Below are positions 9,869 to 61,345 of a stretch of DNA of 64,000 nt, in pieces. Under the pieces are notes generated by a model that worked only from the letters and a program-made list of their open reading frames with translations, had not been told where the DNA came from and ran no database searches. The stretch spans positions 25,048,001-25,112,000 of the forward strand of contig OX597832.1 of assembly GCA_951406725.2 (NCBI GenBank). The letters run 5' to 3'. Source of the stretch: Octopus vulgaris. Lineage: Eukaryota. The position numbers and the translations under genes were made by a program. Within the stretch, counting starts at the first letter, position 1, and each line of letters starts with the position of its first letter.

Positions 9869-10272
9869 GGCGCAGGAGTGGCTGTGTGGTAAGTAACTTG
9901 TTTACCAACCACATGGTTCCGGGTTCAGTCCAACTGCGCGGCACCTTGGGCAAGTGTATTCTGCTATAGCCTCGGGCCGACCAAAGCCTTGTGAGTGAAT
10001 TTGGTAGACGGAAACTGGAAGAAGCCCGTCGTATATATGTATATATATATAAGTGTGTGTGTATATGTTTGTGTGTCTGTGTTTGTCTCCCTAGCATTGC
10101 TTGACAACCGATGCTGGTGTGTTTATGTCCCCGTTACTTAGCGGTTCGGCAAAAGAGATCGATAGAAAAAGTACTGGGCTTACAAAAGAATAAGTCCCGG
10201 GTCGAGTTGCTCGATTAAAGGCGGTGCTCCTGCAAGGCCGCAGTCAAATGACTGAAACATGTAAAAGAGAGT
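9869..10272 (+). mobile_element. Full-length tRNA-derived SINE family A with internal (TA)/(TG) microsatellite
   Basis: Head GGCGCAGGAGTGGCTGTGTGGTAAG (A box), GGTTCAGTCC (B-box-like), tail GACTGAAACATGTAAAAGAG. At least 9 copies in the window. Confidence 0.9.
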
Positions 10273-10376
10273 GTACAAATTATAAAAATATACAGTACAG
10301 CATTGTTTCTAGTGCGTGGAATTTCACATATCGTGGGGTGTTTTGGAACTCAATACCCACGAAAGTCCATGGATTC

Positions 10377-10457
<81 letters not shown>

Positions 10458-10747
10458 TGTATGTATCTATGTATATATGTATGTATGCATGTATATATAT
10501 ATATATATAAGCAAAAGTACCAGATCTAAAATCTCTCTAAGAGATCAACGCAGTAGTTGTACTGACAAATAATGTTCGCAGCCACTTCAACTTGACTTTT
10601 CAACAGACAGCCACGTTGAAGTGGCTACTCTATGTCTGAAAGCGCTAATATAATTTTATGAGCATTACAAAATATAATTTCTTTTAATGTTAAAATACCA
10701 TAATAATAAACATGAAAACCAGACCATGTTTTAACTGTATTCAACTG

Positions 10748-10781
<34 letters not shown>

Positions 10782-10908
10782 AGAGAATGACGGGATGGAC
10801 GCTTCATTTTTGTGCTGGTACCGCATTATGTCGTACGCGACTGAGAGGATTTGCATCCCCAACGTAGAATTTTTGATGTAATACATGTCTTTAAAGTAGT
10901 AATTGTGC

Positions 10909-10986
10909 GCGGCTGAAGAAGGCCATAGACACACATTATGCATTGTTATAAATCCGTCTAATAAAGGCCCGAAACAAATGTACCGC
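10909..10986 (+). ncRNA. Minimal type-I hammerhead ribozyme
   Basis: GCGG CTGAAGA A-GGCC-a-TAGAC...GTCTA-ataaa-GGCC-C GAAAC AAAT GTA CCGC. Helix I GCGG/CCGC is perfect and the core is intact. Confidence 0.8.
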
Positions 10987-11049
10987 TGAATCCTTGGCAT
11001 CATGTTTTTATTTTGATTAATTTATATATATATATATATATATGAGGAA

Positions 11050-11315
11050 CACTCCGTCGGTTACGACGACCAGGTTATCAGCTGATAGGATCAACGGAAC
11101 AGCTTGGTGGTGAAATTAACGTGTTAGTGGCTGAGCACTCCTCTGACACGTGTATATTAACGTAGTTCTGAGGAAGAATCAGCGTGACACAGAGTGTGAC
11201 AAAGCTGGCTCTTTGAAATACTGGTACTACTCATCTTTGCCACTCGAGAGCAACATGAAATAAAGTGTCTTGTGGTCAATTCCCGGGGTCGTGAGTTCAA
11301 TTCCTGGCGACGCAA
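11050..11315 (-). mobile_element. SINE family C, diverged or partial
   Basis: ACTCCGTCGGTTACGACGAC...GTGAAATTAACGTG...GTGACACAGAGTGTGACAA, as in the copy at 16781. Confidence 0.8.
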
Positions 11316-11913
11316 GACACACACACACACTCTCTCTCTCTCTCTCTCTTTCTATATATATATATATATAAATACAAATACACACACATTCACGCTCTTT
11401 ATTCTTCCTGCTTGTTACTGTCGCTGAATCACTGTCACCATGTTGAAGGAACACCTTGAAGCGTTTAATCGAACAAAGCGCTCACAATAATCATTACTTT
11501 TATATCTGATATCAATTTAATGGCATTGCAGAACTGCCAATATCGGACAGTGAGAACGAGTACTCAACACCACATTGGTGGTTAAATATTCTTTATTTGT
11601 GAGTTAATAACGCAACCAATGGTTTCATGTCAAGAGATCTTCACAATTGTCCAAGCGTGCCACATGGAAGTGTTAGTACTCGTGTTCACTTTGGATATCC
11701 ACGTGCTTTTCTATCCGTCCTTTCCACCTGTTTCCTTTTCACTAGGCTGTCTTCCACAATCCTATGTTGTGGTATGTTTGAAGCATCGTCTTCTTACTTT
11801 TAATTTTTCATCTAAAACTTCCACAGTGCCTCATATTAATATATTCCCAATGCAAATCCATTTAACTTTGTTTCTTTTGTTCTTCAAATCGCCGTTCATT
11901 ACCACTTTACCTG

Positions 11914-11985
<72 letters not shown>

Positions 11986-12365
11986 CCTATCTACCTATCT
12001 ACCTATCTATCTATCTATCTATACGCACACACACATATTTATATATTAGTAGTACACATTCAACTAGAATATTAGCTCATCTGCATGTGTGTGTGTGTGT
12101 GTCTGTGTGTATGTGTGCATGTGTGTGTGTATGTGTGTATGTGTGCATGTGTGTGTGTGTATGTGTGCATGTGCGTATGCGTGTGTGTGTTGTACGTGTA
12201 GTACGTAAACATAAACCTACTGATTCTAAGTAACATTACGTGGAAGTGTTTAGACTGTACTATGCTGTTCGTATTTTATTTCTAACACAAAAGTCTCACA
12301 AAAGTATAAAATGTTTAATATGTTACACACACGCACACACACAGATATATATATATATATATATA

Positions 12366-12745
12366 CTAGCAGTATCGCCCGGCGTTGCTCAGGTTTGTAA
12401 GGGAAATAACTATAAAGCATTTTTAGAGAGTTATAGCCAAAAAATAGCAAAAAAATGGAAAAAAAATGATGGTAAATTTTTTTTTTGAGAGTAAAAAAGG
12501 TTGAGTTGCGTCCCCTAGACAGTCTGTGGTTTGTTTTTTTTGATTCTCGACCCCATGTCGAATTTATCGATTTTTTTCAGAACTGGGGTTAACTTTTCAA
12601 AATTTTCGCTGCGTTAGTTTTGAATTATGACATTGGGCTATGTGTGTGTCAAGTTTCATCAGTTGAAAGCCGTGGTCAGGGTGAGGGTACGAGAAAACAG
12701 ACACACAGAAACACGCACAGACAAACTGCCGTTTATATATATACA
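12366..12745 (-). mobile_element. Non-autonomous Helitron
   Basis: Minus-strand 3' end has a GC hairpin CCTGAGCAACGCCGGGC followed by ATACTGCTAG|T. The 5' end is TATATAAACGGCAGTTTGTCTGTG. Termini are shared with 47696-48071. Confidence 0.75.
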
Positions 12746-14920: not shown

Positions 14921-14967
14921 AGACACCTGATGAAGGCAGGAGGGTATATCAGCTGAAACGTCGTGTT
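14921..14967 (+). ncRNA. Minimal type-I hammerhead ribozyme (Penelope-type)
   Basis: GACAC CTGATGA AGGC...AGCT GAAAC GTC GTGTT. Canonical core, GUC cleavage triplet, ACGU palindromic helix III, helix I GACAC/GTGTT. Confidence 0.85.
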
Positions 14968-45265: not shown

Positions 45266-45445
45266 ATATAATTGTATATAAAGAATATTAATGACTGTGA
45301 CTTCGAAGCTTTGGCCACCTGCGCTATCACTGGACTGTGTGTGCATATGTATATATGTGTGAGTATGTGTGTGAGCGCGTGTGTATAAGTAATGTGCAGG
45401 CATACGTATGTACAAACGCATACACACACACACATACACACACGT

Positions 45446-59616: not shown

Positions 59617-59976
59617 CACTCCGCCGGTTACGACGACGAGGGTTCCAGTTGATCCGATCAACGGAACAGCCTGTTCGTGAAATTAACGTGCAAGTGGCTG
59701 AGCACTCCACAGACACGTGTACCCTTAACGTAGTTCTCGGGGAGTGTGACAAGGCAAGCCTTTTGAAATACAGGTACACCATAAACACGAAGAAAGAGTG
59801 AGAGAAACCTGGGGTGACAGAGTACAGCAGGGTTCGCCACCATCCCCTGCTAGAGCTTCTTGGAGCTGTAGGTGTTTTCGCTAAATAAACACTCACAACG
59901 CCCGGTTTGGGAATCGAAACAGTGATCCCACGACCGCGAGTCTGCTTCCCTAACCACTAGGCCATTGCTCCTCCAC
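59617..59976 (-). mobile_element. SINE family C, near full length
   Basis: Colinear with 16781-17160. Confidence 0.9.
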
Positions 59977-60107
59977 TATTATAAAAATAAAATCTATTTA
60001 ACGTATTTCTGAAGTGTTAAACAATTTATTTTAATATAGTACGGAACTGAATTTTATACAGAAAAATTCAACAGAGACTTTGAAGTTTTAGTTTTCTCGC
60101 CTTTCTC

Positions 60108-60601
60108 TGACTGTCTGATGAAGGCAAGGGATCTTTTCGGTTTGAACGGCAGTTTTTCTAGCGGTGTCATATGAAATTGTCACCCATAATTACGATCCTA
60201 GTATCGATCTATTGCATTTCAATCTATTTTAGGGTTAGGGTTAGAGTTAGGGTTAGTTAGGGTTAGGGGTGGGGGAAGGGTATCTTTTTTTCTTCAGAAA
60301 TGTAAATAAACCCAATCTGTTTCTTAAACGAGGGACATTTTCATACGGCATAGAATGTTTTTTACCTCAATATACGTCATTGATTGGTTGAAATTGCAGT
60401 AATTGAAGAAAAAAAACAGCAAATATCTTACAAACTATAGAATTTTCTCAATAAAGCCAAGAGAAAAAGATGTTTTATAAACACATTCTACCAGTATAAG
60501 AAGTTTAAAAGTGTTTAGTTACGTGGAAATTATTTTAAAAAACTGCCGTTCAAACCGAAAAGATCCAAGGCAAGTAAGTCGAAACTTCGAAGTCACAATC
60601 A
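60108..60601 (+). ncRNA. Canonical minimal hammerhead ribozyme interrupted by the MITE
   Basis: Removing the MITE and one TSD gives TGACTGT CTGATGA A GGC AAGTAA GTC GAAAC TTCGAA GTC ACAATCA. Confidence 0.85.
60129..60566. mobile_element. MITE with 29-bp perfect TIRs and 8-bp TSD (Merlin-like), containing TTAGGG repeats
   Basis: GGATCTTTTCGGTTTGAACGGCAGTTTTT ... AAAAACTGCCGTTCAAACCGAAAAGATCC. TSD AAGGCAAG at 60121-60128 and 60567-60574. Confidence 0.92.
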
Positions 60602-61345
60602 ACCTTTTTCTTGTTAAAAAGATTATTTACTCATTTTTTATTCTAAGATTTACTGCAACTTTGTCCTTTTTCGTTTCCTGTCGCAAATCAGCTTTTCTGT
60701 GACAGGAGTTTGCTTATCCACGCCTTTCTCAACGCTTTCCCCTTTGGACAGAGAACGATGCAGGAAGCAATTCCTACGCAATACTTCTTACGTAGCTTAC
60801 TGCAAAAGAAAGAAAATAATTGCTTGCATTAATTTATCTTGTTTGTTATTTATCGTCGCAAGTAAAACAAATTTAAGCTGCCAGCAGGCAAAGACAGAGA
60901 TCGAGATCACAGCATTGAGATATAATGAATGTGGTGCCACTTCTAATACATTTACATAACTAGAGATCGTGGGAAAGGCATGACTGCAACACACCCGTAT
61001 AAAACTTAGAAAACTTTTGTAGATTAAAAAAACAAAAGATTTGTTTTCCTTTCTATACCAATTTTTTCGTTACAAATATCATATATGAATGGTTTCTCTT
61101 GAATAAATGATTCCATTTGACTTTATAGAAATATACAAAATGCGTAGAAAAACAAAAGTATTTGCGTAATTTGCTTTGTTTTCTAGTTTCTTTGGAATTC
61201 TTGAATAGTTTTTAAAGAATATTTTCGAAATGTTCGTTTTATTTTATGTTTATGTTTATTTATAGACATTTCTTTTTTTACTTTATCTCACATTTTGATT
61301 CTCCGTTCAGTAACATTCATTTCATTATAATTATTCAAAACCTTC

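Follow-up and report, generated by a model that had tools for sequence, protein, structure and literature searches.

Can a hammerhead ribozyme still fold and cut after a transposon has landed between the two halves of its core? This question is raised by a short segment of the Octopus vulgaris genome, positions 60,108 to 60,601 of the 64,000-nucleotide stretch that we analysed (hereafter the window; contig OX597832.1, positions 25,048,001 to 25,112,000, forward strand). There, a MITE separates the CTGATGA half of a hammerhead motif from the half that carries its nominal cleavage site. An earlier note on this DNA had proposed that the insert loops out as an extension of helix II and leaves the core able to fold, which would make the locus a naturally split ribozyme. 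In our judgement the answer is very probably no: the locus is best explained as a young and abundant MITE that, likely by a chance hit, sits in loop 2 of the hammerhead within an old, promoterless head-to-head fragment of a Penelope-like element (PLE), and the split ribozyme is predicted neither to fold nor to cut.

The insertion is delimited by two copies of an 8-bp TSD, AAGGCAAG, at 60121-60128 and 60567-60574 (both given on the plus strand), which enclose a 438-bp insert (60129-60566) whose TIRs (60129-60157 and 60538-60566) are identical at 29 of 29 positions. To its left on the plus strand lie core nucleotides C3-A9 (CTGATGA, 60115-60121) and an unpaired A between positions 9 and 10.1 (together 60115-60122), followed by the helix II 5′ strand, GGC (60123-60125), which is contained in the left TSD. 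To its right, the second TSD copy carries another GGC (60569-60571) that re-forms the original helix II hairpin 3′ of the MITE. The segment 60578-60594 (plus strand) then comprises the helix II 3′ strand (60578-60580; GTC, where the family has GCC), GAAA (60581-60584), a palindromic helix III (60584-60593) and the GTC triplet (60592-60594). The nominal cleavage site is after 60594 on the plus strand. The helix I 3′ strand, ACAATCA, which has two changes relative to the family sequence ACTGTCA, and a decayed family tail occupy 60595-60675 (plus strand; the right edge is approximate). The 8-bp TSD had been described as overlapping the end of CTGATGA and the helix II 5′ strand, and our coordinates agree; the GUC triplet and palindromic helix III are likewise present.

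The empty site consists of CTGATGA, one unpaired A, a 3-bp helix II, GAAA, a 10-nt palindrome and GTC, and none of its 22 core bases is mismatched (C3-U4-G5-A6-N7-G8-A9, G12-A13-A14-A15.1 and U16.1-H17). The check proposed with the split-ribozyme idea was a search for insert-free paralogs, and these exist. Specifically, a two-motif pattern comprising both core halves separated by a gap of 11-15 nt yielded 75 exact matches in the genome (2.8 Gb, 227 contigs) and none in a reversed control, and the 15-mer of the 3′ core yielded 1,208 matches versus 10 in the control. The paralogs differ widely and have decayed; their loop 2 varies, and helix II has 0-5 pairs. The MITE did insert into loop 2 of a real hammerhead motif, as the earlier note had held. 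In line with its expectation that a split motif would go unseen by motif searches, a scan of the window gave 0 Rfam matches at gathering score. Neither this blank nor the fold energies of single copies were counted as proof of inactivity.

The description of the motif as canonical does not stand. A canonical metazoan type I hammerhead, which has a 6-bp helix I, a 4-bp helix II and a conserved loop-loop contact according to PMC4209133, is ruled out by the 3-bp helix II that follows an unpaired A and by a loop 2 that varies across the 75 paralogs. The motif is instead of the Penelope type, with an unpaired base 9/10.1, a 3-bp helix II and a palindromic helix III. As described by Cervera and de la Pena (2014; PMC4209133), PLE hammerheads share with it type I topology, the unpaired base 9/10.1, G10.1-C11.1, a short helix I, a small palindromic helix III, and many dispersed, variable and truncated single copies, some of them paired on opposite strands. 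Helix II is 3-5 bp in the octopus family, compared with 6-8 bp for the hammerheads of Schistosoma and Drosophila described there, and the window copy differs further in that a MITE interrupts it and an inversion removed its own helix I 5′ strand. The same source reports that the single PLE motif is inactive and the dimer weak, and one PLE hammerhead is reported to cleave solely with its element's protein (PMC11167929). More generally, loop 2 is said to make a tertiary contact with stem I in most cases, and very short stems II are known (PMC3088659).

Other features of the window deserve a brief description. A second hammerhead-like core at 14927-14966 (plus strand) belongs to a different repeat family, has a longer helix II and lacks a helix III insert; it is probably another Penelope-like terminus. 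A further decayed copy of the same hammerhead family, with a broken 5′ core, is located at 45277-45339 (minus strand). Inspection by eye of the 111 stop-to-stop frames of at least 100 aa in the window, mostly simple repeats, revealed no evident host gene.

The identity of the parent element is indicated by DNA upstream of those paralogs that continue in this direction. A conserved TATA-like box, TATATAAAG, is present about 30 nt before the core, preceded by more than 1 kb of noncoding DNA and, beyond this, by the decayed end of an ORF. The first 460 nt upstream are noncoding, because each frame contains 8-14 stops. The ORF-end fragment gave 80 matches among the 150 that were scored of 2,863 candidates. 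In locus L113 the decayed ORF end, about 1.2 kb of noncoding DNA, the TATA-like box, a hammerhead of the same family and the tail are found in one piece. L113 represents a long-loop sister subfamily, from which the link to the ORF is drawn, and the window copy, of the short-loop subfamily, is 76-78% identical to it over 50-71 nt.

The ORF end shares 40% identity with a better-kept genomic relative that has a weak GIY-YIG match in Pfam (E=0.0014, below the curated cut-off), and this relative retrieves 3,141 proteins at E <= 0.001 with HMMER. Longer proteins, of which homolog search gave none, were found by the HMMER search. Four long relatives (628-722 aa) are collinear with L105, L106, L112 and L113 across RT-like and nuclease parts, and reading them by eye reveals DxxxFYPSI, (Q/M)GS and YRDD, which we take to be RT motifs. 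Among the Atlas neighbours of these proteins, the labels HTH_animal, GIY-YIG and RVT_1 occur. Pfam returned no RT match, and no significant match for 39 frames of read-through translation of the family's upstream DNA; RT matches in the PDB were weak (E 0.66), and a PDB search of P0048 gave nothing meaningful.

RWK and DKT/DKS occur in two of the proteins (P0048 and P0063), and family copies contain CxCX5C (L105 and L113) and CxxC/CxH. RWK, DKT/DKS and CxCX5C are the motifs by which the Hydra clade is defined (PMC8557442). Taken together, these comparisons identify the family, as distinct from the window copy, as a Penelope-like element with a putative RT and GIY-YIG ORF upstream of its terminal repeat. 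As in other PLEs, the terminal repeat of the family contains a hammerhead, and copies can be 5′-truncated or carry an inverted partial copy. The Hydra-clade motifs, RWK and DKT in the long proteins and CxCX5C in family copies, suggest a placement in this clade by motif. We found no intact ORF of the family. Its likeness to the Hydra clade of C-terminal-endonuclease PLEs, as described by Craig et al. (2021; PMC8557442), comprises RWK and DKT/DKS in the matching long proteins, the CxCX5C linker, CxxC/CxH, the hammerhead and an inverted 5′-truncated copy. Unlike that clade, the octopus family has about 1.2 kb of noncoding DNA between ORF end and hammerhead, and its element may exceed the usual 3 kb.

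Among 29 non-redundant core-intact paralogs (L036-L065), 5 continue upstream, 9 have an inverted copy upstream and 15 have neither, a classification based on three references that may miss the upstream DNA of other subfamilies. Paralogs appear to start immediately 5′ of the core, at ACAGT and some 30 nt past TATATAAAG, rather than at the cut site. Such starts suggest that the templates were uncleaved RNAs made from a terminal-repeat promoter, in line with the account in PMC11167929. Another locus (L114, 3747-4658; G000:C17) contains an open 304-aa frame ending in a Hydra-like GIY-YIG domain; it is preceded by an AAT/AAC repeat, and a LINE-like ORF lies directly before it.

Two features of the window copy had been overlooked, namely an inverted copy just upstream and the absence of the family's promoter-like segment. 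Sequence comparison identifies 59979-60114 (minus strand) as an inverted arm, a Penelope-like terminal-repeat fragment with a decayed second hammerhead and the family tail. It is identical to paralog L006 at 92 of 130 positions, scores above all 1000 of 1000 shuffles, begins with ACAGT, and has changes at 6 of 22 core bases. The forward-arm tail region matches L006 at 67 of 94 positions and L113 at 54 of 71, and the two arms are identical to each other at 58 of 89 (65%). Head-to-head inverted copies of this kind are an already described feature of PLEs.

This arrangement changes the interpretation of helix I. In the family, helix I is formed by ACAGT (5′) with ACTGT (3′), versus ACTGT with ACAAT in the window copy. 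The 5′ strand assigned by the earlier note (60108-60114, plus strand) is part of the minus-strand arm: it is the reverse arm's own ACAGT seen on the other strand, and marks the inversion axis (ACTGT, centre 60112) and is not an inherited helix. Its 3′ partner differs at two positions from the sequence indicated by both the family and the reverse arm. Thus, 6 of 7 helix I pairs can indeed be drawn for the empty site, along with 3 helix II pairs and the helix III palindrome, but these helix I pairs are not those of the family and would appear to be a junction product modified by later changes. Because TATATAAAG is found in neither arm, only read-through transcription of the window copy is expected.

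The insert is a MITE, being short, noncoding (it contains no ORF of at least 100 aa), bounded by TIRs and a TSD, and present in high copy number. Searching the genome for the insert returned 2,793 first-look candidates, and the 40 that were scored are mostly 93-95% identical over the full length. At 14 other fetched copies, two of which duplicate one site, the TSD is an exact 8 bp in 11, has one mismatch in 2 and is 7 bp in 1. The exact TIR 24-mer occurs 12,065 times in the genome (6,087 + 5,978), and about half of the first 100 listed TIR matches are end pairs, which gives a copy number of roughly 10,000-12,500. The window insert differs from the majority of 13 close copies at 8 of 437 positions (1.8%), a value biased low by the use of best matches. 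A TTAGGG-type repeat tract lies inside the insert (60222-60266), and the length variation among copies, which range from 436 to 446 bp, possibly comes from this tract.

Several observations make it likely that this MITE derives from the Merlin superfamily. Among 25 loci with IS1595-type (Merlin) transposases, L133 and L134 have GG-ended TIRs of their own and 8-bp TSDs, and the MITE resembles these elements of the same genome in its 8-bp TSD and GG termini. At four loci, single MITE-type TIRs are directed into Merlin ORFs or remnants. At L144, the MITE TIR recurs with 27 of 28 positions identical and is directed into a 298-aa Merlin ORF that lies about 630 bp downstream. Right-end-like TIRs are present on the 3′ side of Merlin remnants at L145, L154 and L158, one of them among the 25 loci and two among 15 related ones. 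No complete transposase-coding element with both MITE TIRs was found among 25 plus 15 Merlin-related loci, and hAT elements also generate 8-bp TSDs (PMC2874221). The open 298-aa Merlin-type frame at L144 (6526-8052; G000:C11), a rearranged locus with the MITE TIR upstream, has a 98% identical copy on C14, and its product is a candidate for the transposase that mobilises the MITE. A 3.3-kb TIR pair on C1 was rejected as an autonomous element, as it is a rearranged MITE; at L067 (G000:C1:33772000-33776100), the two parts of a split MITE flank a 3-kb near-perfect inverted duplication.

The PLE fragment is far older than its insert, because its arms are 65% identical and the MITE is 1.8% from its family. 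On the assumption that the arms were identical when the fragment was inserted, it may be about 10 times older. The junction of the right MITE end with the right flank recurs in contigs of three further organisms, B, C and D, with 8-11 differences over about 340 bases, and its presence in all of them implies that the MITE insertion predates their split. Gap letters number 25 in organisms B and C, and 23 of these fall somewhere within 60539-60631. One contig each of X5 and X8 joins 60125 to 60581 (with 27 letters on one side), which could be a paralog or an empty allele; these joints were left uncounted, as both X5 and X8 also have the filled right junction. X14, which was presumed to be RNA, matched with short pieces of MITE paralogs and did not reach the unique right flank, a result that carries no weight for or against expression; none of the sets compared covered the left flank at 59960-60055.

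On the reading that we favour, then, a PLE with a hammerhead in its terminal repeat spread to thousands of copies, a step observed for the family with its timing conjectural. Many of these copies, among them the one in the window, start at the hammerhead with an inverted partial copy at the 5′ end. This fragment presumably decayed until its arms were 65% identical. The MITE inserted and duplicated 8 bp, the helix II 5′ strand among them, as the two TSD copies attest. In any read-through RNA, the TIRs should pair with each other, the inverted arm upstream should pair with the core, and the helix II 3′ strand should be captured by the second TSD copy. The predicted effect is not a harmless extension of a loop but an insert of 446 nt that separates CUGAUGA from helix II, and the locus would persist as neutral debris.

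Might the hammerhead nevertheless have been competent to cleave, as a dimer or under selection, until the MITE destroyed it? We consider this unlikely. The forward arm has kept each of its 22 core bases, for which the probability is 0.002-0.06 at 12-25% neutral decay, and this counts against the debris reading, in a copy that was picked for its intactness. Two observations favour a knock-out by the MITE. Outside the core, the forward arm is the least diverged of 16 short-loop copies, with 6 of 39 mismatches to the subfamily majority versus 10-18 in the 15 paralogs; the reverse arm has 11 of 39, and the difference between the arms is not significant (Fisher p=0.27). The bare empty-site dimer fold ranks third of 31, which also counts against a reading of the locus as inert debris; paralogs without a 10.1-11.1 pair were given no helix II constraint, and this flatters their rank.

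The fold predictions come from the ViennaRNA nearest-neighbour model, which ignores tertiary contacts and protein help. For the bare motif, the active monomer is 8.9 kcal/mol above the ensemble when the site is empty and 12.6 kcal/mol when it is filled. These values are 24 and 27 kcal/mol when about 40 nt of flank are included, and the gap is larger because the inverted arm pairs with the core. For the double-hammerhead dimer, the gap rises from 8.8 (empty) to 19.3 kcal/mol (filled) in the bare motif, and with 50 nt of upstream sequence it is 45 and 51 kcal/mol, respectively, such that even the empty form is sequestered by its native upstream flank. Moreover, helix I is apparently a junction product, helix II already includes a G-U pair, and the promoter-like box is missing, all of which speak against a knock-out.

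Less probable still is the tolerated split ribozyme itself, in which the insert is held out as a loop on the TIR stem, helix II spans it, and the RNA cleaves itself after C60594 as a monomer or dimer; we regard this as very unlikely. One premise of the proposal is upheld, since the 29-bp TIRs are predicted to pair in RNA with probabilities of 0.65-1.0, and the core is intact. The second premise, that the insert would extend helix II and leave a foldable core, fares poorly: helix II across the insert is predicted with a probability of 0.0002-0.0003, and the local helix II derived from the TSD with 0.15-0.20. The second TSD copy puts GGC just 5′ of the helix II 3′ strand, where it re-forms the hairpin without the CUGAUGA half, and when the structures are fixed this local hairpin is more stable by 3.5 kcal/mol (-44.3 versus -40.8 for split helix II). 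The TSD also separates helix II from the TIR stem by a 3x11 internal loop. Thus, at p ~0.0003, a spanning helix of only 3 bp, one of them G-U, would have to form across this loop in competition with the TSD copy and with an inverted arm that sequesters the core, in an RNA for which the family's promoter-like box is absent.

A natural discontinuous hammerhead is known in Clec2 (PMC2950038), but the search that is described there permitted inserts in loop 1 or loop 3 and not in loop 2; inserts engineered into stem II are a known design. The right MITE junction persists in three other organisms whose flanks are about 2-3% diverged, but neutral sequence would equally persist over such a distance, and organisms B and C carry 23 extra gap letters somewhere in 60539-60631. 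We would be surprised, to a similar degree, if cleavage after C60594 took place with the TIR stem as a replacement for loop 2, be it by the RNA alone, by a dimer formed through the palindrome, or with the aid of a protein.

How, then, did the MITE come to occupy this position? Across the genome, a single intact 3′ core, the window's own, has a MITE end in the 28 nt before it, versus 0.12-0.16 expected by chance. For a loop-2 insertion into a doubly intact core, the expectation is about 0.002 for these two families alone, and this counts against chance. Summed over all young transposons and hammerhead families, however, one such case would seem unremarkable. One of 30 paralogs, the core-intact L040, contains the same MITE (~1548-1980) 13 nt past its cut site; L040 has the best predicted dimer fold among the copies tested. 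A preference of the MITE transposase for such hammerhead or hairpin sites, for which this second insertion and a total of 2 MITE copies in 146 kb of hammerhead loci might be cited, is scarcely credible, given that exactly one junction lies <=28 nt upstream of an intact 3′ core in the entire genome, the selected one, and that no motif common to the TSDs of 14 other copies is visible.

Inert PLE debris with a nested MITE thus remains the reading that we prefer, and the locus is most likely a new instance of known things, a MITE that resides in a PLE hammerhead fragment. The closest natural parallel is the mammalian Clec2 discontinuous hammerhead (PMC2950038), whose core halves are likewise far apart and missed by short-loop searches. 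According to that report, the Clec2 ribozyme is active, resides in an mRNA 3′ UTR, and has homologs in other mammals. Unlike it, the octopus locus is known here from its sequence, and its insert lies in loop 2 with a duplicated helix II strand. We found no report of a natural transposon-split hammerhead in the part of the literature that was searched. Were the split form to cleave after all, it would be a natural loop-2 discontinuous hammerhead of transposon origin, and ribozymes with a long loop 2, overlooked by motif searches, could arise naturally through MITE insertion.

Regardless, the locus illustrates how an insertion with a TSD in a short loop duplicates the adjoining helix strand, which then competes with the long-range helix, and this competition has to be considered wherever a MITE is said to lengthen an RNA stem. 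For the organism itself, the analysis indicates that the octopus genome contains a large, Hydra-like Penelope family whose hammerhead is distinctive.
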